IMG/VR virus record: IMGVR_UViG_3300045988_184219
Length of the DNA stretch: 64,000 nucleotides
Strand: one strand, 5' to 3'
DNA from: a virus
The notes beneath the pieces were generated by a model, which had not been told where the DNA came from, did not search any database, and saw nothing but the letters and a program-made list of their open reading frames with translations. Shown piece by piece: positions 2,936 through 44,823 of the stretch; within the stretch, counting starts at the first letter, position 1; every line of letters begins with the position of its first letter. A program made the position numbers and the translations under genes.

Positions 2936-2947
2936 GTTACTTCCTCC

Positions 2948-8044: not shown

Positions 8045-8097
8045 ATTAAAAAAAAGTGTAGCACATTTTAAAAATATTTTTCTCCAAAAAACGAAAA

Positions 8098-14628: not shown

Positions 14629-15108
14629 TCAGTGCAGGAAAAACTCGAAAACCTTGTTGCTTGTTTTCGGGAAAGCTCCGTCAACCGATGTACGAATGAA
14701 CGCCTCAACTTTCTCACACACCACGCCAACCGTAGCAGTTGCCGAAAAGATACTGTCTCCCTTGTAGAAACACGCAACGTCCACAACATCTTGGCTTAGA
14801 AGGCGAAACGTCATAAGAGCGTCGCCACACCCGACCGAGTAGACAGGAGAGGGGGCGAAGACCTGCCCACGGAAGACAACATCATGTCCTTTGACAGTCT
14901 CTCGAATTGTCCAGTCCATGTAGTTCGCCGACATCACCTCTGTAATCTTAAGTCCAATCCAGTCGATGATTGCGACGGGGATAGAGTTCTCAAAATCGAG
15001 GTCGAGAATCTTTTTGTTTGGTTTATTCATCTCACCGACCTCAACCTCAAGGTGGGAGGTGTGGAGGAGGGAGACTTTCGAGTGGAGGGCCTGAAGAAGA
15101 GTGTGCAT
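14629..15108 (-). CDS. paralog family E protein (159 aa)
   Basis: Tandem family member; shares (N/H)GxxhxhRxFxFxxxxxxYxVxxxG pattern with 15178-18850 genes. Confidence 0.6.
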   Translation of the reverse strand: MHTLLQALHSKVSLLHTSHLEVEVGEMNKPNKKILDLDFENSIPVAIIDWIGLKITEVMSANYMDWTIRETVKGHDVVFRGQVFAPSPVYSVGCGDALMTFRLLSQDVVDVACFYKGDSIFSATATVGVVCEKVEAFIRTSVDGAFPKTSNKVFEFFLH

Positions 15109-15177
15109 TTTGTGTTCCTTTCTTTTGTTAAACCAGTTAACTCGTTCCGATAGATTTATTATATAACAAATTTTGTT

Positions 15178-15663
15178 CTACGATGCGAAAAACTCCTCGA
15201 TGGAGCCATATTTCACATAAAGTGAACCATCCACAAGAGCGTCAATAAACCGTTCCGCCCACTCACAAGCCGTCTCAACAGAAACCGTTCTCTCAAAAAC
15301 AGGCGAATCCATGCCTTTGAATGCGGAAAAGCGTAACATTCCATCATCTACAACACCTAATCCAACCGCTACGTCATAATCATCAGCGACAAGAAAAGAA
15401 ACAGCACCATCGGGAAACACAAACCCACGAACGATGAGATTCTGCCCGGTAATAACCTCCTTAACAACCCAGTCTTCCGAAACAGAGTGTGTTGCCTTGA
15501 GGAGGAAGTCTTTTTCCTTTGGCATATCAGAGACAGGAGTCTTCTCGATGTTTGTATTAATGAGTTCATCATATAGTTGTTGGTTGCCTCCATATGCGAT
15601 TTCGATGTGGTCTGTAGGGAGGTTGAGGAGTTTCTTTTGGAGGAGAGAGAGAATTTGAGACAT
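15178..15663 (-). CDS. paralog family E protein (161 aa)
   Basis: NLIVRGFVFPDGAVSFLV ... similar to neighbours. Confidence 0.6.
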   Translation of the reverse strand: MSQILSLLQKKLLNLPTDHIEIAYGGNQQLYDELINTNIEKTPVSDMPKEKDFLLKATHSVSEDWVVKEVITGQNLIVRGFVFPDGAVSFLVADDYDVAVGLGVVDDGMLRFSAFKGMDSPVFERTVSVETACEWAERFIDALVDGSLYVKYGSIEEFFAS

Positions 15664-15770
15664 TTTGTTTATGTCCTTTCTTCAATGTCGATTGCTAATA
15701 CTTAATGGTTTAATTATAAGCCAAAAGAAGCGGTCAGAGAGGATGTTTCCACTCCAACCGCCCATTTTTT

Positions 15771-16286
15771 TCACATAAAGTCAAGTCGGCGCAACAGACC
15801 TTCTTTTCGGTTGTTTTCGTCACCCGCAATCGGCGAATTTCCCATCGCGAGGACGGCGCGAGCGAACCGATTGATGTACATAGGAGCACTCTCCTCCGTC
15901 ACGGTGTCTGAGAACTTCGTCTCTGAGCCGCACATCATCTTAACCTGCGCAGTACCGTCTCCAAATACCTTTGCGCTCATCATCGAGCCACCTAGGAAGA
16001 CCGCATAGGTGACAGGATTGTCGAACTGGAATACACGGAGCGTGAGTGAGATACCATTGACCTCAAGATGGACGAGAACATCCGAAATCGCATTTTTGAG
16101 TGTTTGAACAGCAAGCGTCCGCACATCGTCGAGATTGTCACCATTCTCCGTGTTACCCAACTGTGTATAACAGAAGTTTCGCGCCGCAGCACTCAACTCC
16201 ATACTCTCAGCAGGGAGAGTTTCGAGGAGCTTAATAAAAGCGTTGCGTACCGCATCGAGGGTGTTTGTGGAGGTGTTTTCTGTCAT
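15771..16286 (-). CDS. paralog family E protein (171 aa; start at MTENTST with SD)
   Basis: SD AGAAAGGACAC 9 nt before ATG 16286; VNGISLTLRVFQFDNPVTYAVFLGG. Confidence 0.6.
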   Translation of the reverse strand: MTENTSTNTLDAVRNAFIKLLETLPAESMELSAAARNFCYTQLGNTENGDNLDDVRTLAVQTLKNAISDVLVHLEVNGISLTLRVFQFDNPVTYAVFLGGSMMSAKVFGDGTAQVKMMCGSETKFSDTVTEESAPMYINRFARAVLAMGNSPIAGDENNRKEGLLRRLDFM

Positions 16287-16465
16287 TGTGGGTGTGTCCT
16301 TTCTGTTTCTACGCCTACATTTTTTGAACAATTAAATTATATAACTTTTTATCTAACAATGTAGGTGTTTTTATGTTGAAATGGTTTTTATCGACCAAAA
16401 GAAAACGGATGGGAGCGACTTTTTCTCCTTCGTCACAACACATATTAACAGATGCGCCCATTGGT

Positions 16466-16891
16466 CTATTTAAACACATTTATAGACAAAAAACGAGAAA
16501 TGCAAACAGAAGCATCACACAACGGAATAACTCGCAACCAAACAGATTTCAACCCCTTCGACACCTCAACTGCAACATCATCACTATCGAAAACACGAAG
16601 CGAAAGAAGGCTATCGTCAACCTCAACACTGTAAGTCAAAACGTCTCCAACAACAGGAAAGGTGCGAAAACGAATATTTTTTCCACCAACCAAAACGTTA
16701 ACTACACACTCAGTAAGCTCATCAGAGATAGCGACAATAGTTTTTTGAACCGCAGAGGAAACGGATTCTTTATCACATTCTGCTCTTGCAATTTCAACAT
16801 AATTCCCTCCTGTTCGGCAACCGCAAGAAACGATTTTTTCAATAGAAAGTCCTTTGAGTTGATTGATGATTTCATTTTTGATTATATCCAT
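16466..16891 (-). CDS. paralog family E protein (141 aa; start at MDIIKNE with SD)
   Basis: SD AGAAAGAAGG before ATG 16891; GGKNIRFRTFPVVGDVLTYSVEV. Confidence 0.6.
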   Translation of the reverse strand: MDIIKNEIINQLKGLSIEKIVSCGCRTGGNYVEIARAECDKESVSSAVQKTIVAISDELTECVVNVLVGGKNIRFRTFPVVGDVLTYSVEVDDSLLSLRVFDSDDVAVEVSKGLKSVWLRVIPLCDASVCISRFLSINVFK

Positions 16892-17129
16892 TATTTTCAA
16901 CCTTCTTTCTAAGCAACAATACATTTAATCAATCCTCACAACAAAATGCCGAGGAATCCCCGTCCTTTAGACGTGGGGTATGTGACCAAAGCCATCTTTT
17001 CTTAGCTCAACCAACTGACAATTAAATTATATAACTTTTAGCAACAACACGAGCCATTTTCCACCACAAAACAAAACAATCGGTTTCAAATATCACTGTT
17101 TTGAAACCGATTGTTTTCATTTGGCTTAT

Positions 17130-17639
17130 TCAGCACTTCACAGCACCGACCACACGATTTCGTACAACACCATCGCTCTCGCCACCGTCAAGAGAAATAA
17201 TCGAATTAACGAAACGGTCAATCATTGCAATCGCATCTCGCACAGGAATCTTCTTCGAGAAGGATCGTCGCCCAAGACAATCCATCTCCACAAGTACATT
17301 CCCGTCCTTCACGATTCGAGCACTTACACCAACACCACCTGCAACGAAACGGTAGGACTGAAGATTGTCTTCAAGAGAGGTACGAAACGTAATCACGCGC
17401 CCATTGACAACAAAAGCGGCGATTGCCTCGTAAGAAGCGTCCTCAAAAACACCTAACACGGTCTGGATTGCAGATTGAACGTCGCCATCATGATCGTCGT
17501 CAACAAGGCAGATGTTTTTCTCGCCCTTGCGCCCAGCATAAGCCGTCAAATCACTACAAGGGATATTCTCGATTTGAGAACAGATTGCTTCACGAATTGC
17601 GTCCATTGTTTTCCTCCATTCTTCCATTGAACAACTCAA
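17130..17639 (-). CDS. paralog family E protein (169 aa)
   Basis: VNGRVITFRTSLEDNLQSYRFVAGG. Confidence 0.6.
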   Translation of the reverse strand: MSCSMEEWRKTMDAIREAICSQIENIPCSDLTAYAGRKGEKNICLVDDDHDGDVQSAIQTVLGVFEDASYEAIAAFVVNGRVITFRTSLEDNLQSYRFVAGGVGVSARIVKDGNVLVEMDCLGRRSFSKKIPVRDAIAMIDRFVNSIISLDGGESDGVVRNRVVGAVKC

Positions 17640-17782
17640 CCGATGTGTTTATTATACAGCTTTTTATGGGATGATGAACATATTTTCACTACAAACGCAA
17701 AAGAAAATAAGCGGTACAACCATGTGTATTGAGTGCACCTCTGCTCGCTATTCTTTCCATTTGGTCTATCAAAACACTTAAA

Positions 17783-18256
17783 TCATTTAAAAACCCCTTT
17801 GATGCTATCAATATCCATATAAAACACACGAACAACCATGTCCTCCACAAAAGCCTTTATCCACCTAGCAACTTTTTCTGCTGGCACATTGGAACCAGCA
17901 AAAAATACATCTGTGTCTTTTGCGACATCAACATTTGCGACATCATTACCCTGTGGTTGAATGGACATGTGGATTCCTTTACAGGAAACCGTATACGTTT
18001 CAGACACATTAAAAACAAACCGTCGAAGCGTTACAGATCGCCCATTGACATCAAGAGTTACCATCCACTCAAAACCATCGTCAGAGAGGATTTCTGTCGC
18101 CTTTTCAAGATAGTCAGAAAGAGAGACATTTTCGTTTCGTGTGTTGATGATAGGAGTCATCATCTTATCCCTCCGCGCCGCAAAGATAGACGCAGAATTA
18201 AATGGGAGATGTGTGGCTTGAGCAAGGATCATGTTATGGATAGCGTTTTTGTACAT
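17783..18256 (-). CDS. paralog family E protein (157 aa)
   Basis: VNGRSVTLRRFVFNVSETYTVSCKG. Confidence 0.6.
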   Translation of the reverse strand: MYKNAIHNMILAQATHLPFNSASIFAARRDKMMTPIINTRNENVSLSDYLEKATEILSDDGFEWMVTLDVNGRSVTLRRFVFNVSETYTVSCKGIHMSIQPQGNDVANVDVAKDTDVFFAGSNVPAEKVARWIKAFVEDMVVRVFYMDIDSIKGVFK

Positions 18257-18349
18257 AGGAGAATCATCCTTTCTATAACTCCTCTTTAATTATAACGAAA
18301 AGCACAAGAAAAGGTGGTACATTTCTGCACCACCCAAAATAAAATATAT

Positions 18350-18850
18350 TTAATCGAAAAGTTTAGCAATCGCTTCAATGTCTTTGAAATCGCCACTTTG
18401 ACGTATTTCTTGAAGAAAACTACTCAGCAGTACACTTGCGTATTGCTCTGGCATGATGGCGGTACGAAGAGGGTCAATATTGTCGATAATATCCTTAATT
18501 TCGATAACACCCTCTTTGTTAAACAAAGAAACAAGTGCTTTACCATCGTCGTGAGGTTGAATAAGGAGATAAATAGACTTGCACGAGATCAAGAAAGATT
18601 CAGGTACGCGGAAGTGAAGATGTTGGAAAGAAACAGTGTTTTTATTATCTGTGATTGCAACAAGCCACTCAAGATCTTTGTTTGAGACTGTTTTTAAAAC
18701 TTTCTCGATAAATTCTGTCGCTTTAAGAGATTCAGGATAACCAGTAACAACGGGCTCAATCATTCCATCAATAGGACAAGAAAAGACGGCGAGGAGGTCA
18801 AAGGGAGACTGAGAGATGATGTTGTAGGTGGTCTGGTAGATAGGAGACAT
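18350..18850 (-). CDS. paralog family E protein (166 aa)
   Basis: DNKNTVSFQHLHFRVPESFLISCKS. Confidence 0.6.
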   Translation of the reverse strand: MSPIYQTTYNIISQSPFDLLAVFSCPIDGMIEPVVTGYPESLKATEFIEKVLKTVSNKDLEWLVAITDNKNTVSFQHLHFRVPESFLISCKSIYLLIQPHDDGKALVSLFNKEGVIEIKDIIDNIDPLRTAIMPEQYASVLLSSFLQEIRQSGDFKDIEAIAKLFD

Positions 18851-21719: not shown

Positions 21720-22076
21720 TTACTTGCGATGGGAATGAGAGATTACCTCATCCAACATAATTACAAGCCAGTCAGGTTTGTTCGTCAGCCTATTGGTCAA
21801 GTGTTCAAGAGAGGCCACTTGTTGCGGGGAGGAAAGTGTGTGATGTTTAACAATCAGAGTTAGCCCACGAACGAGAGCTGTGAGACGTTCGTGGGGAGGC
21901 TTATGCGATTGGACGTTATTGATAAGTGTATCAATTTGCTCGTTGACAAGTTTTTGTTGTTCAACCTGCCAAGTCGCAACCTCTCGTTGAGCGTCAGCAA
22001 GATGACGGCTTTTGGATATGTTTGGGGTTTTCAAAGAGAACACCTTCTTTTTGGCGATGGGTTTCAATCCGCGCAC
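21720..22076 (-). CDS. doubtful ORF (118 aa, no ATG start, no SD), runs into the CRISPR-like repeat
   Basis: Only a GTG start inside the repeat; no cassette. Confidence 0.2.
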   Translation of the reverse strand: MRGLKPIAKKKVFSLKTPNISKSRHLADAQREVATWQVEQQKLVNEQIDTLINNVQSHKPPHERLTALVRGLTLIVKHHTLSSPQQVASLEHLTNRLTNKPDWLVIMLDEVISHSHRK

Positions 22077-22092
22077 CTACAATAGGTACGAT
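22061..22092 (-). repeat. solitary CRISPR-like repeat unit (type I-C-like): minus strand ATCGTACCTATTGTAGGTGCGCGGATTGAAAC
   Basis: Same GCGGATTGAAAC handle and a compensated hairpin as at 7675 and 62075-62270. Confidence 0.5.
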
Positions 22093-22433
22093 GGCAACAC
22101 ATAGAAAGATTCGCCCGTTCCGAGTGCCTTCCACTCCACACAGATCACAAAATCGACGTATTTTAGGGAATCTATTCCCACTATCGCATCCTTGCGACCC
22201 TTCTCGATGAGAGGAAACGAGTCGATTTTATGTTCACTTGAGGTTCACACTCAGACGTTTTCTTTGGCATATCCAACGATTATTTGTGTCGCGGTTGTAA
22301 ATTTTCGGTCGTCCGCGCAAAACGACCTTCTTTTGACCAAATTCACGTCACCCAACCAAACGCCGGGTTCGACCTTACCACACAATCAATCCTCTCACCA
22401 CACCTTTCCTTTAGGCTATCAACAAGACTTCAT
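22093..22433 (-). other. conserved ~330-nt leader-like element (copy 2 of 3)
   Basis: GGCAACACATAG ... CGCATCCTTGCGACC ... GCGGTTGTAAATTTTCGGTCG ... shared with 7707..8044 and 62271..62602. Confidence 0.5.
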
Positions 22434-22529
22434 TTACAGAAAGTGTAACACATATTAAAAATTATTGTTCTGCAAAAAGAAAAACACCTGTCAAGCAAGT
22501 GTTTTTCAAGGAAGAGATTTGAGAAAGAA

Positions 22530-23099: not shown

Positions 23100-23520
23100 A
23101 CCCACTCATTATTATAAAGGTGAGCTATCTTTCCGTTTCATTAATCAAGCTGTTTTATATCAACCAACCATCCTTTTCGTCTTTCCAAGTTCATCATACT
23201 GCTCCACCCAATTCTTCAAATGAGCATCCGCAACAGAGAGAGACACGGACGGATAGCGACGAATACAGTTGCCATTCTTATAATATCGCACTTGAACTCC
23301 CCACGACTCTCATCGCGGGATTCTCGGGTCGTTCGCAACTTAGACACCTTCTCACCGCAAATGAGACGTTGATCCAGTGCCCAGAGGTCGCGAAAAATTA
23401 CCGAGCTATCCCCGTCGTCCCAACGGTTCGGTAAGGCGAAAAGTTCGTTGATAAGCCAAAGGATTAGGCGGATTTGTCGCGAAACTTTTCATCGAGTTCT
23501 ACGAGGAGCCGAAGCCCTTC
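23100..23520 (-). ncRNA. candidate TnpB guide RNA (omega/reRNA) region: 3' end of tnpB plus downstream right end
   Basis: ~400 nt ORF-poor segment downstream of tnpB where IS605-family elements encode their guide RNA; not verified structurally. Confidence 0.3.
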
Positions 23521-24621
23521 GCAGAGAATATTCTGTGCCGCGTTGAGGTCGCGGTCGTGATGATGCCCACACTTCGGGCAGATCCACTCACGCACGCTGA
23601 GTTCCTTGACGGCGGGGTTTTTGAAGCCGCAATTTCCGCAGGTCTGCGAGGAGGCGTAGAACCTGTCCACAGTGAGGAGAACGCGTCCGCGCCAGAGAGA
23701 CTTGTATTCGAGCTGTCGTCTAAGTTCACCCCACGAGGAATCCGCGATGTGACGGGCGAGACAGTGATTCTTTATCATCCCGCTCACGTTGAGGTCTTCA
23801 ATGAAGATAACCCCGTACTTTTTTGTGACAAAGTTCGTTAATTTATGAAGGTAGTCCTCTCGTTGTGCCGCAATTTTTGCGTTCAGCCGTGCCACCTTGA
23901 CCCGAGCCTTCTCGCGACGCGCACTCGACTTTGATTTTCGGTCGAACGAGCGTTGCAGAAATTTCAGGCGATTTAAGGAGGTATTGAGCGGCTTGAGCGC
24001 GTCAAACTGCGTGCCATCGGAGAGGATTGCGAGGTCTTTGATGCCAAGGTCGATGCCGACAGGATCTTCATTGTGCTCCAACACAGGCGCAGGAACGTCG
24101 GTTGCGCAGATCGAAATGTAGTACCGCCCGTCTGGTTCGATACGCACGGTCGCACTGAGGATTCTGCCCTCTGGAATGAGGTTCTTCCCTCCGCGAATCC
24201 GCACCCTGCCGAGCTTCGGAAGCTTGATATGCGTCCCCTCAAACGCGATGTTGTTATTCGTGAAATTCGTCCGATAACTCTGATAGTTGTCGCGTTTGGA
24301 CTTGAAGCGTGGATAACCAAACTTCCTCTTGCGCGACGAGTTGACCGTTCCAAAGAAATTATCATAGGCTTTATCGAGATCGCGAAGGGCGTTCTGTAAC
24401 GCACATTTATCGGGTTCGAGGAGGAACGGGAGTTCACGTTTGAGGTCGGTCAGCCGTTTGCTACACGCGTTGTAACCGAGCGTTTTCTTCGTTTCCGCGT
24501 ATGTGTCGATTCGGAGTCGAAGAAAATAATTGTAAATAAATCGTTTACACCCGAACGTCTTTTTAATCAAGTCACGTTGCTTTGCGTTCGGGTAGGCACG
24601 GTACACGTACCCCTTTTCCAT
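23464..24621 (-). CDS. tnpB: IS200/IS605-family TnpB (RNA-guided RuvC nuclease, OrfB)
   Basis: RuvC-I GIDLGIKD, RuvC-II IFIEDLN, zinc finger CGNCG...CPKCG, RuvC-III RDLNAAQNI; 385 aa; no tnpA. Confidence 0.85.
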   Translation of the reverse strand: MEKGYVYRAYPNAKQRDLIKKTFGCKRFIYNYFLRLRIDTYAETKKTLGYNACSKRLTDLKRELPFLLEPDKCALQNALRDLDKAYDNFFGTVNSSRKRKFGYPRFKSKRDNYQSYRTNFTNNNIAFEGTHIKLPKLGRVRIRGGKNLIPEGRILSATVRIEPDGRYYISICATDVPAPVLEHNEDPVGIDLGIKDLAILSDGTQFDALKPLNTSLNRLKFLQRSFDRKSKSSARREKARVKVARLNAKIAAQREDYLHKLTNFVTKKYGVIFIEDLNVSGMIKNHCLARHIADSSWGELRRQLEYKSLWRGRVLLTVDRFYASSQTCGNCGFKNPAVKELSVREWICPKCGHHHDRDLNAAQNILCEGLRLLVELDEKFRDKSA

Positions 24622-27735: not shown

Positions 27736-28359
27736 ATGGAAGATGGCACAAACAAAACAACAGTTTTAACAAAAGAAGAATGTATAAAACTTAGAAAAGA
27801 ATTGCTAGGGGAAGAAGAAATAAATTTTCAAACATTTATTAAAAGCCGTTTAACCGAATTAAACCTACAACAAAAACACCTAGCAGATATGTGCAACGTA
27901 AGCGATAAGACAATTTCTAAGTGGTGTTCTGGAAGGGGGCTTCCCGACATAATGATGATTCCTGTTTTGGCAGAGACATTAGATGTTTCAATACATGCGA
28001 TTACAAACTCCATTTTTGGAATTCGAGATTATTATACGGTTGATGATTTAACTTCGAGAGCTATTTTAGATGGAGTGATAAAAGAAAAGAACGAATTTCC
28101 TGATGCAGATTGTATAGCGGGAGCTTTTATTGGAAAAAGTGAATATAACCTATATTTACTCTTAAAACACATATATAAAACAAATGGTGTAGAATATACG
28201 ATTAACGATTTTCTCAAAAGTGATGAGTTTCGTCGGATTTGTTCAATTAAGCGTATAGCAGTATTGCAAAAGGTGTTCATGTGGTTCCAGAACGTCAAGA
28301 TCTATAATTGGGATAAAGAAAGAGATTTTGAGTTTAGAAAAGAGGTTAAAGTAAAATGA
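27736..28359 (+). CDS. XRE-family helix-turn-helix transcriptional regulator (207 aa)
   Basis: HTH LTELNLQQKHLADMCNVSDKTISKWCSG; low-GC codon usage unlike its neighbours; opposite strand. Confidence 0.7.
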   Translation: MEDGTNKTTVLTKEECIKLRKELLGEEEINFQTFIKSRLTELNLQQKHLADMCNVSDKTISKWCSGRGLPDIMMIPVLAETLDVSIHAITNSIFGIRDYYTVDDLTSRAILDGVIKEKNEFPDADCIAGAFIGKSEYNLYLLLKHIYKTNGVEYTINDFLKSDEFRRICSIKRIAVLQKVFMWFQNVKIYNWDKERDFEFRKEVKVK

Positions 28360-28667
28360 AGTTAGTAGGAAATGAACAAGACGTTCTTTTTTTACAAGAC
28401 GTACATCAGTTATTGTTATCAAAACATAAAGACGATATAGAAAAATTATTATTTATAAGTGGCTGGAAAGAAACACAGATAAAAGTATTTCTTTATTTGT
28501 TAAAGTCTATTTGTTTCGAGATAAATGAAAAAGAGTTGTCTTTACTATTTGGTGTATATGATAGAAGATCAGGGGGAGCACTATCCTTTCGAGGTGACAA
28601 CGGGGGGTATCATTGGGATGTCATGTCTCAAGAAAATGTAAAAAGTTGTTTAACTAAATTGATGTGA
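28356..28667 (+). CDS. hypothetical protein (103 aa), co-transcribed with the XRE regulator
   Basis: 4-nt overlap with upstream stop; same low-GC composition. Confidence 0.55.
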   Translation: MKLVGNEQDVLFLQDVHQLLLSKHKDDIEKLLFISGWKETQIKVFLYLLKSICFEINEKELSLLFGVYDRRSGGALSFRGDNGGYHWDVMSQENVKSCLTKLM

Positions 28668-28668
28668 T

Positions 28669-28698
28669 AAAAACCACCTAATATATTAGGTGGTTTTT
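28669..28698. terminator. bidirectional intrinsic terminator AAAAACCACCTAATATATTAGGTGGTTTTT
   Basis: Perfect 9-bp stem with A/T tracts on both sides, between convergent genes. Confidence 0.7.
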
Positions 28699-28716
28699 AC
28701 TGACACTACAAAATTT

Positions 28717-29136
28717 TTAACTAAGCATATCAAACACCTCTCTCATCTCCTTAGTCATCGGAGGAAACGGTGGCAACTCATATCCACTATTCCGCTCCTT
28801 CACATCGTTGTAAATCATTCGATAGCACAAATCCGCCCACACATAAATCTTCGCATAGTATTCCTTCTCCTCCGTAGAAATCTCACAACATCTAGAAATC
28901 TCATTCGACAACTTCCTCAATAAGTACCAGTGTTCAAAAGCTCCACGAGACACATCGTTTGGGTCAGGAAGATTGACCAAAAGACGGTGTATAATCATCT
29001 CGTTTTCTACAAGTACATAGCACTTATCTGAAGGAATCATTTCCTTCTTTTTGTAATAATAGTTTCGGTTTATATTGTACTCGCTACTACGATGAGCAGA
29101 CTTCTTGTTTCTGTTTTTGTTGCGATTGTTAGCCAT
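28717..29136 (-). CDS. hypothetical basic protein (139 aa; start at MANNRNKNRNKK)
   Basis: SD AAGAAAGGAAAATC before ATG 29136. Confidence 0.55.
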   Translation of the reverse strand: MANNRNKNRNKKSAHRSSEYNINRNYYYKKKEMIPSDKCYVLVENEMIIHRLLVNLPDPNDVSRGAFEHWYLLRKLSNEISRCCEISTEEKEYYAKIYVWADLCYRMIYNDVKERNSGYELPPFPPMTKEMREVFDMLS

Positions 29137-29302
29137 GATGATTTTCCTTTCTTGAAAAACATTATAAAAATTTTTCAACTCCTTCCATACACGGGAAGCA
29201 GTTTTCAAAGCACCACTTCCCGCATCAGGAAGGTTGAGAGAGGAGAGAATTAGAAAAATGGAATTAAACTAATTGGTTGTCTTATGTTTTGGGAAAGTAA
29301 GA

Positions 29303-29644
29303 TTATAGATATGGGAACATATCCAAATCTTCCTCGGAATACCCACAAGTTTTAAGAGACGTGTAGATGTCATAATAGAGCCAAGACTCCTCAGCATAAA
29401 TCTTCAAAAGTTGAAGCCGTTTCAGTTCAGAAAACCCTTCATACCGATAAAGGGAACCAGCCTCGTTTCGCATTTGCAGGTGATGGAGAAGAGAGTCGAT
29501 TGAGTAAAGCTCTTGCGGAGCTTCTTTTAATTTCTTATCCAATTCTGCGGCGCGATTGTAATGTTCAAGATTATTTTCACGCTCAGACTTGTGAATAATT
29601 TTAACTTCTTGACCGTTCTCATAGATTGTTGTTTCGTTTGTCAT
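29303..29644 (-). CDS. hypothetical protein (113 aa)
   Basis: SD AAAAGAAAGGCAAAGG before ATG 29644. Confidence 0.55.
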   Translation of the reverse strand: MTNETTIYENGQEVKIIHKSERENNLEHYNRAAELDKKLKEAPQELYSIDSLLHHLQMRNEAGSLYRYEGFSELKRLQLLKIYAEESWLYYDIYTSLKTCGYSEEDLDMFPYL

Positions 29645-29689
29645 AGTTGTACCTTTGCCTTTCTTTTGCAGAAAAATTTTCTCGGAGAT

Positions 29690-30160
29690 AATCTCTCCCT
29701 CTCAATAGAGAGCGGACACAAAACCGCGTTTTGGTCACTCTTTTTAAATTAGAAGTTAATTAAGATTTTTCTCGTCATTAACACCTTCTTTTTGATACCA
29801 AACTTTAACTGATTAGTTTCTATCCCCCTTTCAATAGAGTGCAGATAGATAAGTCGGTTTTGGTCACTCTTTTTTGATGAAAGTTCGATTAGGTTTTTGA
29901 ATGACCACGTTTTTAATAACTTTTTCCTCCTTTCAATAGATGTAGACATTAACAAGCGTTTTGGTCACTCCATTTCAAAAAAATTTTTTAAAAGTTCTTT
30001 TGATAGACCAAAGGGAAATCTGTAAGTGGATTCTCCTTCCTATAATAAAGAGGACATTGATAGGTGGTTTGGACACCTGTTTTTGAAAATTTTTCTATAA
30101 AAATTTCCCCTCTACTATTGAAAGGACAGAAATCATCAATCTTAGCGGATTTTTTGCAAT
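29690..30160. repeat. tandem array of 4-5 imperfect ~110-bp direct repeats (CTTTCAATAGAG...GTTTTGGTCACTC + T-tract)
   Basis: Units starting ~29697, 29825, 29928, 30036, plus an inverted-looking unit ~30105; each contains 2-3 small hairpins; no ORF. Confidence 0.55.
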
Positions 30161-30222
30161 TTATTTTTGGAAACAAAAAAAGAAGCCCTAAACAGGACTT
30201 CTTTTTCTTTTGTATCATCCGA

Positions 30223-30699
30223 TTAGTAGAGACACATCTGTTCCGCAGACTCCACCTTCTCAGACTCAACCGCCACCTTGTCAGGGTTCTCCCCACGTAG
30301 CTCGGCACGAACACGCATGAGGATCTTCCCCAACATATTCTTTCCGTAACCTTTGTAGACCCCCCAGTAGATGTCACCCCAATCGTTTCCCTCAACGAGC
30401 TCCTCATCGCCTGTAGCGAGAAGTTTCTGAGCGAGGTCGGGGTGTTGATCAAATTTTGCTCGCACAACATCAAGCATCACTTGATCTTTAACCTGCTCCC
30501 AGTCAGAACGCAACCGCACTCGCCGACCGAGCCTCTTTGCCTCAGATGGGTTCAATTTCGTGAACTCACCTGAGCGGACGGGGCACTTCTCGGAGTGGAA
30601 GGCCGCCTCTGTGTTTGTGAATGTGAGAAACCCGTGCTTGACAGGTACGGAATAGAAGTTGGAAAGGAAATAATACTTTCCTCGAAATTCGTTGATCAT
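30223..30699 (-). CDS. NADAR (YbiA/DUF1768) family protein
   Basis: Hallmarks YYFLSNFY, EAAFHSEKC, DWGDIYWGV, GKNMLGKILMRVRAEL; 158 aa. Confidence 0.75.
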   Translation of the reverse strand: MINEFRGKYYFLSNFYSVPVKHGFLTFTNTEAAFHSEKCPVRSGEFTKLNPSEAKRLGRRVRLRSDWEQVKDQVMLDVVRAKFDQHPDLAQKLLATGDEELVEGNDWGDIYWGVYKGYGKNMLGKILMRVRAELRGENPDKVAVESEKVESAEQMCLY

Positions 30700-31384
30700 A
30701 AAACCATCCTTTCTGAATCAAGAAAACGAACTCGATATATTTATTATATAACAAGGATGGATAGAAAGAAAGATAAACGCCTAGAGGAAGCGAGAAGAAA
30801 AGGGAGGAAGAGAGGAAAAACAGATGTTAAAGAAAACAAAAACTGCGCACCGTTATTTATCGGTACGCAGTTTTCGCGAGTTGGTTTATGTTCCTCGTCA
30901 TTTGACAAGGTAGAAAGGAGGCTTATTTATGCGGAGGGGTCGCTAACAGAAAGGATACGAAACCGTAACAACCAGTTCTCCGCCTGTACCATCGTGCCAT
31001 TACGACCACATGCGCAACTGCTCGGTACAGTTTCTATTATAATCATTGAAAGAGAAGGTATTTGGAGTTTTAATTTTAGATGTGTTTTTTGTTTTCAAAA
31101 CGAAAAAACGCCCCGTGACCATTCGGGACGTTTTTTCTGAGTTGTGTCAACCTATTGCCCACTATGAGCAAGCAGAAAGGAGGATCGAGAAGAGCGGCCA
31201 TTGCCCATCTCGATACACATATATTCTACCACAAACAAAAAAGTTTGTGGAGATATTTTCACAAGACAAGCAAAATTTTCTTTTATATCCGACAAAAACG
31301 ACACCAAACGAGAAAGCCTCAACCTCACGCTAGATGCCGCCGTTTCCTTTGGTTTATCAAATAAGATTAATTCATAAAAGAAAC

Positions 31385-32338
31385 TTACTTAATCAAATCA
31401 GCTCCAACGATAATCCCATTACCACCAACAATCTTAGGAAGCTCACCATTCCACTTTTCAATTCGTCTCTGCTCAATAACGCTCTGTGTCAAAGACTGTT
31501 GTAGCTTATAGTTCGCGGCCGACTGACCGTCAGCCTGAATGATAAGCGCATCCGACTCACCTTTTGCCTTAATCCGCGCAGTCTCAGCTTCAACTTCTGC
31601 CCGCTCCTTCTCGATCTTCGAGCGTTCAAGTTCATTTTGTGCGTTGACAACATTTTGAATTGCCTGAGCCGTCGCCTCGTCAGGGACAACATCCGAGAGG
31701 TTGAACGTCTCAATCACGATTCCGTAAGGCAATAAACTATCACGAAATTTTTCAAAGATTTTTGTATTAACATCAGGACGCTTATCTCCAACAAGTTCCA
31801 TAAGAGAATATTGAGATGTCACGTTGTTGACAGCCTCATACATTGAGTTTTTCATATACCCCGATTCAATCAACTCTATTTTCTGTCCTCGGAACTTCTC
31901 AAACACACGCGGGAGTGTTTCTACATCCATGTGATACGAGTAAGTGATAGAGACGTTGACCTGCTTACCATCTTTGGTGTTGACGTTAATCGAGCGATCT
32001 GTTTTCTCTGTCTCATTCCCCTTGGTATAGTAGACGGTCTCTGTCGAAATCGGATAGGAGGTTACGTGCTTCCAAGGCGCAACAAGGTGAAATCCCTGCG
32101 CCAAAGTTTCTCCCTCAATCCCTCCATCCATGTTGTACACAACTCCTGCGTAACCGGGGTTGATACGACACGTACAAGTGAACAAGACTATTACACCTAG
32201 GAGTAGGGCGACAGTCACACCTATGATTCCTGCCGCACGAGACTTCAACGCTACGATTTCAGTAGAGAGATGTTCTTTAGAGTTTGATGGAGTGAAATTA
32301 GAGTTATTTTTGTTACCGAATATCATCTTGAATATCAT
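31385..32338 (-). CDS. SPFH/band-7 (prohibitin/HflK-like) membrane protein (318 aa; start at MIFKMIFG)
   Basis: N-terminal TM IIGVTVALLLGVIVLF, SPFH core, Ala/Glu-rich coiled coil ERAEVEAETARIKAKGESDALIIQADGQSAANYK. Confidence 0.7.
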   Translation of the reverse strand: MIFKMIFGNKNNSNFTPSNSKEHLSTEIVALKSRAAGIIGVTVALLLGVIVLFTCTCRINPGYAGVVYNMDGGIEGETLAQGFHLVAPWKHVTSYPISTETVYYTKGNETEKTDRSINVNTKDGKQVNVSITYSYHMDVETLPRVFEKFRGQKIELIESGYMKNSMYEAVNNVTSQYSLMELVGDKRPDVNTKIFEKFRDSLLPYGIVIETFNLSDVVPDEATAQAIQNVVNAQNELERSKIEKERAEVEAETARIKAKGESDALIIQADGQSAANYKLQQSLTQSVIEQRRIEKWNGELPKIVGGNGIIVGADLIK

Positions 32339-37825: not shown

Positions 37826-38419
37826 TTATCCATTCCGCTCATCCACTTCGTAAATCATTCGTCCATCTTCCGTATAGTCCATGTCCAACTCCTCAAGGTG
37901 CGCCCGAATAGATTCGTCCGAGAAATATTCTTTTGCCTTCTCCTTTACATATCCTTCTGCAAAGTGACCAATAAGGCTCATAATACCCGACACAACATCT
38001 TCCAGTGCGACCAAATCAATCTCTTTCATAGTAAGAGAACATTCGATTCGTCCAGAAGAAAAACCATCCATGTAGATAGCGTCTAAACCAAGAACGTCTC
38101 TCTCATCAAAACTGAACTGCACACGATCCTTGAGTTGCGAGCGAACAAAGTCCTTGAGATCATCTTCGTCTGTACTCTGCAACCGAACCATGACGGAAGG
38201 AATCGGATAATCGTCTTCAATCGACCAGCGGAACGCACTGAACATAGGTTCGATACGAAGAACACTGTATAAGAGTCGGAATCGCTCACATATCGCATCC
38301 TTCACATCAAGACTGATCTTATCAAGTACAGTATCAAGATACCAAACGGAGCGAAACGCTTCCATAATCGCCGTTTTCTGGGCGTCAGGAGAAAGATTTG
38401 TAAAGCTGATTTTCTGCAT
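37826..38419 (-). CDS. paralog family C protein (197 aa; start at MQKISFTNLS)
   Basis: SD GAAAGGAAGGAAAATC; N-term FTNLSPDAQKTAIMEAF; C-term HLEELDMDYTEDGRMIYEV. Confidence 0.65.
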   Translation of the reverse strand: MQKISFTNLSPDAQKTAIMEAFRSVWYLDTVLDKISLDVKDAICERFRLLYSVLRIEPMFSAFRWSIEDDYPIPSVMVRLQSTDEDDLKDFVRSQLKDRVQFSFDERDVLGLDAIYMDGFSSGRIECSLTMKEIDLVALEDVVSGIMSLIGHFAEGYVKEKAKEYFSDESIRAHLEELDMDYTEDGRMIYEVDERNG

Positions 38420-38481
38420 GATTTTCCTTCCTTTCAAAGAGAAAACGGCATATTTTCTTCTATATGCCGTTTCTCATAACC

Positions 38482-39054
38482 TCAAATTTCTTCTTCCGCA
38501 ATCATCCCATCTTCGTAGCACTCAAGATCATTGTTCGCAAGCCAACGTCCGACCTCATAATCAGAGAAATAGTGGTTGATTGCCCCCTGCGCCGCCCTCT
38601 GTGCGTGCTCGCCGATGCGTTTTATAATATGCACAAGTTCTGTTTCCATACGCTCAATAGTTGTGTCCGAGAGACCAGCATAAGCCGTAACCTCAACACC
38701 AACAACCCCGTCGATGTAGCGTATTTTGAGGCGTTGAACGAGCTTGAGTTCGGTCTCCGTAGGAACACCAAAGGAGTCCTTACGAAGTGAAACACCGAGC
38801 CACTGTGCGACGTTCGAGGAGTCGATAGTGACGTTTGCAATAACAAGCGGGTTGCCTTCTGCATCATAACCATCGAACATAGGGCGAACCGAGCTTGAAC
38901 CTTCAGGGAGGCAGAAGGTTTCGTCGATGTCGAGCTCTGCGTCTTGCCGTGCGCTGTCGAGACTCATATTAAGATACTCTGTGCGGTTGCGGAGAGAGTT
39001 CCATGCGATGATGCGCTCATTTGCGCCGAGTTCGCTGTAATTTACTACTTCCAT
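38482..39054 (-). CDS. paralog family C protein (190 aa)
   Basis: C-term WLANNDLECYEDGMIAEEEI. Confidence 0.65.
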   Translation of the reverse strand: MEVVNYSELGANERIIAWNSLRNRTEYLNMSLDSARQDAELDIDETFCLPEGSSSVRPMFDGYDAEGNPLVIANVTIDSSNVAQWLGVSLRKDSFGVPTETELKLVQRLKIRYIDGVVGVEVTAYAGLSDTTIERMETELVHIIKRIGEHAQRAAQGAINHYFSDYEVGRWLANNDLECYEDGMIAEEEI

Positions 39055-39259
39055 TTTTTGTGTCCTTTCTGTTTGTCATTTGCTTAACCAACTCTTGATG
39101 GGTTTATTATATAACTTTTGAAACGATAGTGTATGTGTTTTTGTGTGGAGTGCGTAGAATATGCCAAAGGAAAAAATGGCGGTTGTCGATAGGTTTTGTT
39201 CCTGCCGAAGTGTACCGCCATCCGTTTTGTTCCTTTGGTTTATCTATTCGCTCAACAAA

Positions 39260-39847: not shown

Positions 39848-40393
39848 TCACTCAAATTCTTTCTTATCGAAAATTCGCCCTCGTCGCGTAAACACAATAT
39901 CGTGTTTTTTACAAAATCCAGAAACGCCTTCTTCACTACGCTCAAACTGAACAACTTTCAAAAGTCGAGCGCGAATACGGTCAATAACCTTGCTCAACCA
40001 AGTGCTAACATGTTCATGGAAACGCTCATTTTCATTCGTCGCGCCAAAAATTCCTTGTTCGCTATAACGCAACTCAATGGGAACAGAGGAAAACGAATCT
40101 TCTTCTCCATACTCAGAAATCTGTCTTAGAGCTGCAAGTTTCGACGGGTTTTTTGTACGGAAGATGCAAACGATAACAGGAATGTTCCATTCGTCTATAT
40201 CAGCACACAAACTCGCACAATTTGCAAGATCTTCTCCAACTTCTTCAGCGAACAGCCTCTCAAACAACTCGCCAAGATTTTCACTGACTTCTCGCTTCCA
40301 AAGATCATATCTCGCCACACTTTCTACCGCACAAGCACGCGGCAACTCGTCTAATTCCTCAAACAAGAAAACTCTAACGACAACTTCTCGCAT
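39848..40393 (-). CDS. paralog family C protein (181 aa)
   Basis: C-term FCKKHDIVFTRRGRIFD; 9-nt gap to the upstream gene. Confidence 0.6.
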   Translation of the reverse strand: MREVVVRVFLFEELDELPRACAVESVARYDLWKREVSENLGELFERLFAEEVGEDLANCASLCADIDEWNIPVIVCIFRTKNPSKLAALRQISEYGEEDSFSSVPIELRYSEQGIFGATNENERFHEHVSTWLSKVIDRIRARLLKVVQFERSEEGVSGFCKKHDIVFTRRGRIFDKKEFE

Positions 40394-40546
40394 TTCTTAA
40401 CCTTCTTTCCGAACAAAGATATATTTATATTATATAACTTTTTCACAAACACAAAACACAAAAAAACGAAGCGCGACAGCACTTTCTTCTATGCCACAAC
40501 GCTCCGTCTTAAACGACCTTTCCATTGGTCTATCTATTATTCCGAC

Positions 40547-41086
40547 TTATCCACATAAGCCAGAAATCATTTTTCCATTATTATTAAATCCAATATCATT
40601 CAAATAACAATATGATTCGATTTGTGAATCCTCCAACCTCCAAACAAAATCTCTCATAACTCGTGCTCGAATCAAATTCGCGGCATCGAGCAACCAATCA
40701 CCGACATATTCCCCGAACCTACTATTAGACAAAAGTTGCTCTGCGACAGGATCGGTACTTACAGAGATGGAAAGGTGGGTATTGGGTTCGACATATCCGC
40801 CATATCCAGTTATGCGACGAAGTTCTTTAATGTCGTTTTCTGTCTTTGCGTCCAAGATGAACGAAACGGCGATGTTGTTCAAATGAATTCGTTGAATATG
40901 TAGAGAAAGGAACGTTAGAGAATGACATCCTGTAACCTGTTCAAAAGCAATTTTCTCCAAAGAAGAAAGAGACTTGTCGAGAGAATCGAGGAAACTATGT
41001 GTTCCGAGAATTGTCTGACGTGCCTTTGCGCGTGCATATTCTGAGAGTTCGGAGAATGTGTAGAGCGTGGTTAAAACGGTTTGCAT
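40547..41086 (-). CDS. paralog family C protein (179 aa)
   Basis: N-term YTFSELSEYARAKARQTI, C-term YCYLNDIGFNNNGKMI. Confidence 0.65.
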   Translation of the reverse strand: MQTVLTTLYTFSELSEYARAKARQTILGTHSFLDSLDKSLSSLEKIAFEQVTGCHSLTFLSLHIQRIHLNNIAVSFILDAKTENDIKELRRITGYGGYVEPNTHLSISVSTDPVAEQLLSNSRFGEYVGDWLLDAANLIRARVMRDFVWRLEDSQIESYCYLNDIGFNNNGKMISGLCG

Positions 41087-41279
41087 GATTGTACTTCCTT
41101 TCTTTTTAATTAAGAACGAACAAGATTAAACGAGTTAATTATACGATAAAAAGAAATTATTTGCATTAGAAAAATAAAAAATAATTCAAAAGGAAGATTA
41201 TTTTACTCTGGAAAAACTTTGAACAAAAAAGACAACACACATTAAGTGTATTGTCTTTTTCTTGGAGCGTCAGGAAATA

Positions 41280-41813
41280 TCACAGATTCTTCCGCATCAT
41301 CCCGTCAGTTTCAAACTCAATGTCGTGAGTTAAGCAATAATCTGCCAACCCATCATCCGACAGATAACGTTCGAGATCCTCAACAACCCTATCTTTCACA
41401 GACCACGCAACATTGTCGAGATAGCGAGCGATCTGGGTCGAGCACTCGTCATCTGGAAACAAATGTGGGAGCATCGAGTCTGTAGCGACACGGATGTCAA
41501 TATCGCCAAAAAGCTCAACATTTTTGCCCCATCCAGAGACTTCTGCAAAACGCTGAAGCAGTGTCTTTGTGCCGATATGAGCGCGAAGATCAACCGATAC
41601 GCAGTCTCCTCCATAATAGAGACTCTGTACAGTCATCGCCTCCACGATCTCAGTAGGAACGACCCTACGGAGATGTGACTCCACTCTAACGTCAACAAAA
41701 CTGTTGGTGTTGATGACAAAATCTCTGTCATCAAGGATAGCCCTACGCGCTCGCGAACGATGCTTGTCGTCGAGCTCGTTGAACCGAAATAGAGAAATCG
41801 AAATAACACGCAT
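41280..41813 (-). CDS. paralog family C protein (177 aa; start at MRVISISLF)
   Basis: SD GGAAAGGAGAAAATACT; C-term YCLTHDIEFETDGMM. Confidence 0.65.
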   Translation of the reverse strand: MRVISISLFRFNELDDKHRSRARRAILDDRDFVINTNSFVDVRVESHLRRVVPTEIVEAMTVQSLYYGGDCVSVDLRAHIGTKTLLQRFAEVSGWGKNVELFGDIDIRVATDSMLPHLFPDDECSTQIARYLDNVAWSVKDRVVEDLERYLSDDGLADYCLTHDIEFETDGMMRKNL

Positions 41814-43476: not shown

Positions 43477-44823
43477 TCACGCGGACTCCCGACGAGGCGA
43501 GTCTGTTGGACGAGCAGCCAAACCAGCACAGGCGATCCTTGTCGGCGCTACCATAATCGGGCGTAGCACAACGCCCTCTATCCCGTCGGCAAACGCGTTC
43601 GGGACTACTTTTTTCACGATCTGCAACGCTCCGTTTACGTCCGCATTCACGCGTGTTCCGTCGTTTGAACGGAATAATCCTCGATGAATACGACGCTTTT
43701 TGTTGTAAAATTCGCGTGTCGGGGGCTCTCCGTCCAGAAATGATGTACCGCTCGTATAGCTTTCTTCTGTTACGACAACAGCTATACCATGTTCATACGC
43801 TTTGTACTCGATCATTTCTATCAATCGGGCGAACGGGAGTCCTACAAAATGCTGGTTCTCCTTCGCCGTGAACGGGGTGCGCTCCTTCCAGTCGCGGTTT
43901 AGACCAATGATAAGTGTCGGAATATTCTGTGCGACGAGGCGATCTACGATGAGGCGCGAGGTCTTGTGCAGGTAATCCTTGAGTTTTGCGTTCCTTTTGT
44001 CAATCAGGCGTTGGATTCTCCGCGTCACTTTCCTCCCATTGAGGTGCTCCGACATCTCACGGAGAGACGCCAAACGCTTGTTGTAGAACTGGTTGATCGA
44101 CTTCGGGATGCGACCGTTTACGATGATCGGAGCGTCCCCCGTGGAGAACGCCATCGTAACGAAGTTGTTTACGCCGAGGTCAATTCCTGCGTATCTCCCG
44201 TTGGGCTTTCTCTGAGGAACTTCCTTGATTCTGTAAACGATTTCAAGGGTGATGAACCCTCCGTGCGGGACAAATCGAACCTGTTGAAACGACTTTATTT
44301 CACGAGGGCTGTTAGTGTCCTCGCGGATGAACTGCGGCTCAACCGTGAACCCCTTGAAAACTTTTGGAAACACGATTTTTCCATCCCGAATTTTACACTC
44401 TTGACTCGTTAAAGTTAGAACGTGCTTTCCATCCTTCTTTAGAAAATGAGGCGGTTTCGGACGACCCTTATACTTTTCAGGGTGCTTTTTCCAATCTTTA
44501 AGTTCTTCCCAAAAACTTTTCCAGTCTGTCACGAGCAAGCGTAAATTCTGCTGTGCGCTCTGTGCCGTCGGCATGTTCCGATAGTCGGGAAAGTCCGTTT
44601 TCGACTTCAGGATTTTGTCAAGTTGTTCATAACTCGACTGTTTCTCGTGCGCGAAAAACTGTTGCCGAAGTAGATAATTCCCTTGATTATAAAGGTTTTT
44701 TGACATGTGACAAAACTCCGCGAGCATTTCATACGCGGGGTGAGTCTCCTTGATGATGTGTTGCTCCACGCGAACAAAGGGATCTTTCTTTTTCTTCGTT
44801 TTTGGCTTTTCTTCCGTTTTCAC
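43477..44823 (-). CDS. TnpB-derived protein lacking zinc finger and RuvC-II Glu (possible nuclease-dead, TldR-like)
   Basis: RuvC-I GIDLGVNN present, DYLHK block aligns with the intact TnpB, RuvC-II position reads IIGLN (no Glu), YTSGTSFLDG replaces the CxxC zinc finger, NADVNGALQI retained; ~200 aa N-terminal extension; standard cassette promoter at 44878-44900; only 67 nt to the next gene. Confidence 0.6.
   Translation of the reverse strand: MKTEEKPKTKKKKDPFVRVEQHIIKETHPAYEMLAEFCHMSKNLYNQGNYLLRQQFFAHEKQSSYEQLDKILKSKTDFPDYRNMPTAQSAQQNLRLLVTDWKSFWEELKDWKKHPEKYKGRPKPPHFLKKDGKHVLTLTSQECKIRDGKIVFPKVFKGFTVEPQFIREDTNSPREIKSFQQVRFVPHGGFITLEIVYRIKEVPQRKPNGRYAGIDLGVNNFVTMAFSTGDAPIIVNGRIPKSINQFYNKRLASLREMSEHLNGRKVTRRIQRLIDKRNAKLKDYLHKTSRLIVDRLVAQNIPTLIIGLNRDWKERTPFTAKENQHFVGLPFARLIEMIEYKAYEHGIAVVVTEESYTSGTSFLDGEPPTREFYNKKRRIHRGLFRSNDGTRVNADVNGALQIVKKVVPNAFADGIEGVVLRPIMVAPTRIACAGLAARPTDSPRRESA

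Follow-up and report, generated by a model that had tools for sequence, protein, structure and literature searches.

A conserved array of operon-start repeats in an uncultured gut phage as a candidate promoter and 5'-leader region

The early operon of phage T7 is headed by three tandem promoters, A1, A2 and A3, which lie about 125 bp apart and match the host sigma-70 consensus. The nut sites of lambda and the put sites of HK022 are leader RNA elements for processive antitermination. In Firmicutes, Shine-Dalgarno (SD)-like tracts and stem-loops at the 5' end protect mRNA 5' ends and can also mask ribosome-binding sites. The STAB-SD element of Bacillus thuringiensis cry3A is an SD-like 5' stabiliser without a start codon (PMC4113751), and a polypurine 5' stabiliser of the Bacillus phage SP82 is mentioned in a passage of a second article (PMC7509114, citing Hue et al. 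1995). Here, these systems are compared with a repeat array in an uncultured large gut phage, represented by a 64-kb stretch of the IMG/VR record IMGVR_UViG_3300045988_184219 (the window). Five co-oriented direct units, U5 to U1, lie on the minus strand, the sense strand of the neighbouring genes, within a gene-free stretch (29645-30222) that is flanked by two minus-strand genes, one encoding a NADAR-domain protein (30699..30223) and the other a protein of 113 amino acids (aa). Most likely, the array is a start and leader region, present in several copies, that serves two small genes, and identity as a replication origin is not favoured. We put at about one in two the probability that this region, composed of tandem, diverged operon-start cassettes, controls the transcription start and 5' leader of the operon formed by the 113-aa gene and a 139-aa gene.

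Each unit is 45-55 nt long, and successive units are spaced by 72, 108, 101 and 129 nt, with spacers that are A/T-rich and mutually non-homologous. Read in gene sense, a unit consists of an A tract, box A (GGTG(A/T)CCAAAAC), 8-9 variable bases, box M (TGTCC or TGTCT) and, after a further 6-8 bases, box B, in which TA(T/G)T(G/A) is followed by a purine run (GAAAGGAGGA, GAAAGGGGGA, GGAAGGAGAA or GAGAGGGAGA). The core common to the units is therefore TGTCC-N6-8-TA(T/G)T(G/A) with an SD-like purine run that lacks a start codon, and it is the upstream box that differs, being GGTG(A/T)CCAAAAC in U1-U4 and TCCGCTAAGA-N10 in U5. The SD-like runs read GAAAGGAGG in U3, GAAAGGGGG in U2, GGAAGGAGA in U4 and GAGAGGGAGA in U1, and no ATG, GTG or TTG stands 5-12 nt downstream of them; a small open reading frame (ORF) after each purine run was rejected, a canonical start codon at a suitable distance not being found. 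The 13-mer GAGTGACCAAAAC is present in exactly three copies on the minus strand (29728-29740, 29857-29869 and 29958-29970), with no other exact copy in the 64 kb, and a profile of the units matches the window four times (E-values of 1e-17 to 2e-12) and nowhere else. Since this profile was built including the window's own copies, the exact 13-mer count serves as the independent evidence. A repeat search returned direct families of two to three copies at spacings of 129 and 101-102 nt.

The 13-mer count and the direct families bear out the repeated units of the preliminary description, which had been made from the letters alone. Its TTTGGTC core is likewise real, as a heptamer in three units on the plus strand, and is also part of a window-wide intergenic motif, CTTTGGTCTATC; the T-tracts that it placed after each unit on the plus strand correspond to the A tracts before each unit in gene sense. 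Its statement that the region has no ORF holds for conserved frames, although mechanical ORFs exist (such as one of 68 aa at 29955..29749), because a 101-nt indel and many indels of 1-2 nt between relatives leave no reading frame conserved. The proposed tandem array of ~110-bp repeats was not recovered: Tandem Repeats Finder returned 0 rows for 28000-32000 even at a minimum score of 30, and because the spacing is irregular (72-129 nt) and the spacers are non-homologous, the units are interspersed direct repeats and not a tandem array. Nor is the last copy (~30105) inverted, as had been thought possible, since U5 aligns directly with the other units on the minus strand; its 12-nt inverted match arises because CCTTTCAATAG in the U5 core complements box B (CTATTGAAAGG). 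The idea that U5 is inverted and pairs with U2 or U3 was discarded, as the apparent U5-U1 co-variation in relative L001 is not seen in relatives L061 and L065 and the direct alignment suffices.

A search of IMG/VR with the 17-mer of the U5 core led to unrelated viral contigs. With a degenerate pattern, 71 instances of a widespread element were found in 47 stretches of IMG/VR viral contigs. In its consensus, A/T-rich sequence is followed by YCCGCT(A/G)AA, a variable spacer of 8 nt, the invariant TTCTGTCCTTTC, a variable loop of 6-8 nt and a variable purine run. Two blocks, CnGCTnAnA and TnCTGTCCTYTC, are invariant and the spacer sequence varies, with zero indels in 41 distinct sequences. The element is in all cases located upstream of genes and co-oriented with them, typically as two tandem copies and one divergent copy. 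Several copies begin 0-3 nt past the T run of a terminator, which leaves no space for another promoter, and in five contigs (L143, L144, L157, L162 and L183) the gene that follows has the purine run as its ribosome-binding site. Some of the element-bearing regions lie beside a replication module with PD-(D/E)XK/DUF2800, Enc34-like single-stranded-DNA-binding, VapE and VRR-NUC proteins, others beside a protein of 136-151 aa with a region-4-like helix-turn-helix, in some contigs followed by large serine recombinases. This protein, a candidate sigma-like factor, is encoded after the element in contigs such as L143 and L147. In three temperate-phage-like contigs (L135, 3000-3300; L136, 900-1100; L148, 9650-9850), two tandem copies and one divergent copy are present, and the upstream tandem copy is located inside a long perfect hairpin of 9-18 bp, an arrangement that recalls a genetic switch region.

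A profile built from the unrelated contigs only gives a single match in the window, at 30150-30106 on the minus strand (E 1.4e-11, over 45 nt), which is U5. This unit contains CnGCTnAnA, the 8-nt spacer, TKCTGTCCTYTC, a loop of 6-8 nt and the purine run, and judged by its sequence it is a member of the widespread element family, which it also resembles in lying between a terminator and the first gene of an operon. U5-U1 together follow this order, with the terminator upstream, then the units and then the 113-aa gene, all co-oriented. U1-U4 depart from the family in having GGTG(A/T)CCAAAAC as upstream box and an altered core, and five copies are present here instead of the usual one to three. 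Because the reverse search, using the unit profile of U1-U4, finds the U5-type copy of the distant relative L069 at E 0.003, the two types probably share a common origin, U1-U4 being probable diverged derivatives. Tandem promoters and SD-like leaders are known kinds of control region; the element family, the upstream boxes and the five-copy arrangement are not catalogued. Rfam 15 has no match at the gathering threshold in the window and nothing credible at E-values up to 1 in 29100-30300, and on the other element-bearing contigs gathering and E-value thresholds returned only RAGATH-18, elsewhere in L061. In cultured-phage and plasmid records the element was not found, a distant blastn search with the element-bearing regions giving one irrelevant match. 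The exact 17-mer has 60 matches in 185,579 species genomes, which is about chance, none of them accompanied by the upstream box or matching the unit profile, and literature searches by sequence string gave nothing relevant.

The closest relatives are 140-408 kb contigs from samples of the human gut, including a 145-kb IMG/VR viral genome; megablast of the region against phage and plasmid collections returned no match. The whole module, with its order unchanged, is conserved in phage-like contigs (140 kb or more) that represent at least six lineages. In every relative, the gene immediately 3' of the module is the 113-aa gene or, in those that lack it, the 139-aa gene. The upstream neighbour varies, being the NADAR gene with its terminator in most relatives and a 1.5-kb noncoding stretch with CRISPR-like repeats (clustered regularly interspaced short palindromic repeats) in L061-L064. 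The number of units per lineage is 2 to 5, and U3, which stems from a 101-nt unit duplication, is missing in L001, L053, L061-64, L065, L067 and L070. The distant relative L069, in which RecA, GyrB and a phage metallopeptidase are encoded beside the homologous genes, has proteins that are 55-63% identical and retains U5 and U1 only. U5 is conserved in all relatives, L069 included, where its core is identical at 19/19 positions. When the unit profile was run on 532 kb of related loci, the array was found only at the orthologous place.

This distribution bears on the idea of a decaying remnant, in which the units would be leftover hairpin and ribosome-binding-site junctions of deleted genes and only the gene-proximal copy would be functional. 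Box A (GAGTGACCAAAAC) does resemble GATAGACCAAAGG, the left arm of inverted repeats between most genes of the window, the extra unit was gained by a simple 101-nt duplication, and the purine runs resemble orphan ribosome-binding sites. Yet unit order and boxes are kept across lineages whose proteins differ by 10-40%, L069 preserves its two units with almost unchanged boxes, and no unit-like sequence exists at any other junction of the window or of the 532 kb of related loci. We give decay little credence: conservation, order and fixed position argue for function, and selection acts on the module, which is linked to the genes downstream.

AAAAAG-TTATATAATAAA-tacATCaAgAGTTGTTGA probably represents the chief promoter class of this phage; it stands before nearly every small gene, with 36 sites in the window on the minus strand (e.g. 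58701, 49572, 35489 and 14617), and has a perfect TATAAT, no -35 element and a conserved stretch of the first ~20 transcribed bases. Between 30751 and 27491, no site of the promoter-like TTATATAATAAA motif is found. Because the NADAR gene ends in a terminator-like hairpin and this motif is absent, the 113-aa and 139-aa genes need a start signal of their own, for which the module is the only candidate. In each cassette, two blocks lie 16-17 bp apart, a geometry like that of the sigma-70 family, with the purine run beginning ~7 nt beyond the second of them. As upstream block, U5 has TCCGCT and U1-U4 have GGTGAC or GGTGTC, and the downstream block is TGTCC with its neighbouring bases; as read from the alignment, the upstream box of U1-U4 keeps the same distance to the TGTCC block as in the widespread element. 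Hexamers at promoter-like spacing are GTGACC/TCCGCT and CCGCTC/CCTTTC.

From these patterns, we infer promoter activity, start sites and a recognising factor. A specialised, non-housekeeping form of RNA polymerase, with a putative sigma-like factor or activator encoded outside the window, would recognise the two blocks, and transcription would start at or just before the purine run. SD-like tracts and small stem-loops would be found at the start of, or within, the transcripts. Those initiated at upstream copies would traverse the downstream copies, and it is by this read-through that U1 is proposed to act also as RNA with conserved hairpins. The presence of several copies might raise or tune expression, or provide two start specificities, one of the U5 type and one of the U1-U4 type. 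Such an arrangement is similar to the T7 early promoters in that several co-oriented candidate start signals, 70-130 bp apart, with A/T-rich sequence upstream, occupy a gene-free stretch before the first gene. It differs from them in that the units are without a sigma-70 consensus, their promoter role is a prediction, and they are situated inside a long gene array and not at a known genome end.

Several results weigh against a promoter function of the units. The blocks are unlike the housekeeping -35 and -10 elements, and a sigma-70 scan gave 5 sites in 2.3 kb against 5.0 expected, none of them at a unit core. No sigma or activator gene is present among the window proteins, and no regulator common to this phage and the other element-bearing contigs was found, SNF2 helicase and C5 methylase being all that is shared. 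With this lineage excluded, the independent profile gives U1 only E 1.1 and leaves U2-U4 undetected; since it recognises U5 alone, the promoter status of U1-U4 rests on weak homology. Furthermore, if the hairpin formed by block 2 and the purine run acts as RNA, transcription must start upstream of block 2, which would then be leader and not a -10 element. In addition, the U1 hairpin joins this unit's own '-35' and '-10' blocks with an RNA-type tolerance of G-U pairs, for which a leader is a better fit than an active promoter.

U1 alone folds better than shuffled sequences (-20.8 kcal/mol, z-score -2.77), and U2-U5 reach z-scores of only -0.03 to -0.7, so that of the small hairpins which the preliminary description saw throughout the array those of U1 stand (29676-29747, z -2.8) and those of the other four units do not. 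In the first hairpin of U1 (29741..29709), box A pairs with box M: 95.5% of the cells are paired in 11 distinct sequences, compared with 27-60% when the partners are slid, two pairs show compensatory changes on both sides and three alternate between A-U and G-U. The second hairpin (29698..29684) is formed by the purine run and a downstream pyrimidine tract (GGAGA/TCTCC) and is kept with other sequences, GGGAG/CTCCC in L001 and GGGAA/TTCCC in L069, which makes three lineages in all. RNAfold also predicts the pairing of purine run and pyrimidine tract in some contigs related to L135 and L148, and such pairing would fit a stem-loop at the 5' end of a transcript. In the widespread element, the invariant TTCTGTCCTTTC is able to pair with the purine run, and the sense RNA is more stable than the antisense RNA in 21/25 cases. 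This hairpin beats shuffled 3' arms in 27/28 cases, 9/28 individually reaching 0.05, and two variants alter both arms (CCTCTCC with GGAGAGG). A small upstream hairpin of the element, between its box and the spacer, is not claimed; its stems are of 3-4 bp, in inconsistent registers.

The conservation of U2-U5 in sequence without structure is as expected for recognition by a protein or polymerase. In this respect the shared protein-binding core of the preliminary description survives as an idea, since conserved boxes at fixed internal spacing and with little structure fit recognition by RNA polymerase or a regulator; its concrete proposals of an origin or partition site, an insulator or a structured RNA do not fit the results. 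The evidence is mixed: a promoter-like conservation of two blocks at fixed distance stands beside a real but variable RNA-type pairing that masks the SD-like tract.

Rather unlikely, in our estimate, is a single start near U5 from which either a long 5' leader, structured or bound by protein, or a noncoding RNA of its own is transcribed; the boxes would then be RNA binding sites and the SD-like tracts would bind 30S subunits. The possible roles of such an RNA would be stabilisation of the STAB-SD type, SP82-like processing sites with stabilisers after them, or a sponge for ribosomes or an RNA-binding protein. The conserved U1 hairpins with their compensatory and A-U to G-U changes, the preference for the sense strand in the pairing of the widespread element and the purine runs GAAAGGAGG, GAAAGGGGG and GGAAGGAGA without a following start codon are in line with such a leader. 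In common with STAB-SD and SP82, the locus has an SD-like purine tract in what would be a 5' untranslated region (UTR), without a start codon, in a phage of a probable Firmicutes host; the strong SD-like tract unused for initiation, by which STAB-SD is recognised in sequence, is present in the purine runs of U1-U4, their location in a 5' UTR being predicted. The run GAAAGGAGG of U3 matches the cry3A STAB-SD sequence. The differences are that STAB-SD is a single copy and four to five copies are found here, each coupled to conserved upstream boxes, and protection by 30S subunits or against RNase J1 would apply to this locus only by analogy. SD-like stabilisers are described in PMC4113751 and in the passage of PMC7509114 mentioned above. 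A long structured leader is, however, difficult to reconcile with the failure of U2-U5 to fold better than shuffles, the covariation term of only -1.88 in the consensus fold of the whole module, the lack of an Rfam match even at E-values up to 1, the conservation of the boxes as sequence and not as structure, and a unit number that changes from 2 to 5 between lineages. By the same results, the repetitive structured RNA of the preliminary description is retained only for the RNA-type hairpin of U1, as four of the five units fold no better than shuffles and Rfam has no match.

The conserved boxes could alternatively constitute a multi-copy DNA site for a phage protein, serving as origin, partition or packaging site. 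Five direct repeats with a conserved core in an A/T-rich, noncoding stretch (GC content of 0.35 for 28001-30000, a local dip from about 0.44 in the window), the A and T tracts beside the units, a copy number that differs between lineages and the adjacent basic 139-aa protein, which has no assigned function, are all shared with, or compatible with, iteron origins and partition sites. Against this, the units are long, 45-55 nt, and irregularly spaced (72-129 nt), in contrast to the three or more direct repeats of 17-22 bp in helical register that characterise iterons, so that no short phased repeat is present. The Rep gene that adjoins or overlaps an iteron origin is lacking, the NADAR, 113-aa and 139-aa proteins having no match to a Rep family, and no operon of the parA/parB type lies next to the array within the window. 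Family searches of the 84 window proteins found no Rep, ParA, ParB, terminase or sigma/activator family, neither a DnaA-box cluster nor a TTATCCACA-like site exists within 29650-30170, and the cumulative GC skew falls steadily through the site without a turn. The search for Rep or Par genes and for a skew inflection, proposed as checks in the preliminary description, thus went against an origin or partition site. In addition, the units are polar with respect to the genes, and in other contigs their homologue strictly shares the orientation of the genes and can include a ribosome-binding site. A DNA site of this kind is accordingly improbable.

A row of plus-strand intrinsic terminators that insulates against antisense transcription, akin to the multi-terminator insulator of the preliminary description, is very improbable. 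The plus-strand end of each unit is GTTTTGGTCACTC with a T run, and the plus strand of U1 folds equally well (z -2.88). However, a consensus scan detected no plus-strand terminator inside 29690-30160, where a repeated G+C-rich stem of at least 5 bp with a T run would be expected, the stems of U2-U4 are of 5 bp or absent and are not conserved, and there is little to insulate because nearly all neighbouring genes lie on the minus strand, the 27736-28667 island being the exception.

The more speculative possibility was considered, and is held to be a slim one, that the element, together with its four lineage-specific copies, is by analogy an RNA loading site for processive antitermination in Firmicutes phages, similar to nut and put and with the 139-aa protein in the role of N, or the promoter class of a sigma-like factor of mobile elements. 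In the first variant, the 139-aa factor would let transcription pass the terminator-like hairpins that follow almost every gene. In the second, a near-equal alternative, the factor would be borne by mobile elements and its promoter class, a new one, shared by gut phages and integrative elements. Likenesses to nut and put are the linear conserved box at a fixed 8-nt distance from a stem-loop, the occurrence of the widespread element in both arms of divergent early regions in temperate-phage-like contigs, and the position of the module before the gene of a small protein (139 aa) with a basic, disordered N-terminus. The differences are that in several contigs the element comes directly after, and not before, a terminator, that the loop sequence is not conserved, and that no N-like protein and no sequence match to boxA or boxB is present.

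The features of the locus are collected in Table 1. The NADAR gene product is supported by a Pfam match (E 5e-27), and its terminator, together with the next ~25 nt, is kept in the relatives carrying NADAR and forms the upstream boundary of the module. The 113-aa gene has its own ribosome-binding site, AAAGAAAGGCAAAGG, at about 29653-29667; its product has five close homologues and one of 102 aa in L069, and no relatives in Pfam, NCBIfam or the PDB. For the 139-aa protein, 24 homologues were found, with the module upstream in all whose context was fetched. Searches of family libraries with this protein gave no match and a PDB profile search nothing useful, and its AlphaFold model has a predicted local distance difference test (pLDDT) score of 58.8, below 50 for residues 1-43, which is too low for a fold search. 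Between the two genes, GAAAAATTTTTATAATG at 29155-29175 (minus strand) includes TATAAT and precedes the 139-aa gene's ribosome-binding site by 25 nt; in lineages retaining the 113-aa gene, it may serve as an additional start signal.

Table 1. Features of the array and its immediate surroundings; positions refer to the window.
Feature	Position	Strand	Description
Intrinsic-terminator-like hairpin with T run	30172..30211	-	Inverted repeat with 18-nt arms (repeat search); ends the NADAR gene 30699..30223
U5	30104..30150	-	TCCGCTAAGA, N10, TCTGTCCTTTC-AATAGTA-GAGGGGA; by sequence a true copy of the widespread element
U4	30027..30084	-	AAAAACA-GGTGTCCAAACC-N9-TGTCCTC-TTTATTATAGG-AAGGAGAA; unit profile E 1.7e-12; orthologue in most relatives
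Intergenic motif CTTTGGTCTATC, one sense copy	30002..30013	-	Invariant in the module alignment; 24 sense-strand copies in the window; elsewhere follows intergenic terminator hairpins
U3	29921..29976	-	GGAGTGACCAAAAC-N-TGTCTAC-ATCTATTGAAAGGAGGA; unit profile E 6.7e-13; only in the window's own lineage
U2	29818..29875	-	AAAAAAGAGTGACCAAAAC-N-ATCTGCAC-TCTATTGAAAGGGGGATAGAA; unit profile E 2.3e-13; orthologues in all close lineages
U1	29684..29746	-	AAAAAGAGTGACCAAAAC-GCG-GTTTTGTGTCCGCTC-TCTATTGAGAGGGAGA; unit profile E 1.2e-17; two hairpins
113-aa gene	29303..29644	-	First gene 3' of the module; ORF call; function without assignment
139-aa gene	28717..29136	-	Basic, disordered N-terminus and helical remainder; always accompanies the module

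A plus-strand island of low GC content (27736-28667), which adjoins the 139-aa gene on its downstream side, encodes a 207-aa HTH_3 protein and one of 103 aa. Relatives have other cargo (411 aa, 525 aa, or 238 plus 125 aa) beside an HTH_3 gene at this spot, and the island has the appearance of a variable hotspot that may carry defence or counter-defence genes. The window is otherwise packed with small minus-strand genes, and at least 65 of its 84 predicted proteins are without a family match; it also encodes tandem paralogue families, an SNF2 helicase, a C5 methylase and TnpB genes. The paralogue arrays consist of small genes without family annotation and are located at 14629-18850 (seven in a row), 37826-39054, 39848-41813 and 54453-60361. 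Two TnpB/IS605 OrfB genes are found on the minus strand (23464-24621 and 43477-44823), and in the relative L061 the RAGATH-18 RNA (6495-6580, E 4.5e-11) adjoins a TnpB gene.

Between genes, long imperfect inverted repeats of the form GATAGACCAAAGGAAA ... TTTCCTTTGGTCTATC occur (e.g. 59600-59744, 58008-58044 and 39194-39244), the right arm often standing after a terminator hairpin. With up to 2 mismatches, the motif has 24 occurrences on the sense strand and 42 on the antisense strand of the window, and it may represent processing or termination signals. An integron reading with attC sites and gene cassettes was dropped, as no RYYYAAC/GTTRRRY cores were visible by eye, no formal search being made, and the genes have their own promoter-like motif. 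A palindromic, CRISPR-like repeat of 37 nt, GTTGCCATCGCACCTTACGCGGGTGCGCGGATTGAAAC, is located on the minus strand at 7675-7711, 22061-22097 and 62075-62254 (three copies), with degenerate copies at 55307-55323 and 55781-55797, giving 8 matches in total against 0.13 expected. Its ending, ATTGAAAC, is typical of type I-C repeats. A conserved noncoding block of ~330 nt precedes three of the CRISPR-like loci (7674-8054, 22060-22442 and 62263-62620), and the same layout is seen in L061 at 2690-3115. Possible readings of these repeats are a solitary repeat or mini-array carried by the phage, an RNA anti-CRISPR and a guide-RNA scaffold.

Taken alone, the array is a lineage-specific control region of an uncultured phage and of modest significance. 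It led to a conserved cis-element outside Rfam, a marker of operon starts in gut elements, phage-like or recombinase-bearing, whose hosts are probably Firmicutes. Should this element prove to be a promoter class, or else a control site in RNA that is served by a dedicated factor, the transcription units of uncultured gut phages would be easier to annotate, and difficult-to-engineer hosts would gain a compact part for expression or regulation. The array described here, with its five copies, is a natural test case for the effect of copy number.

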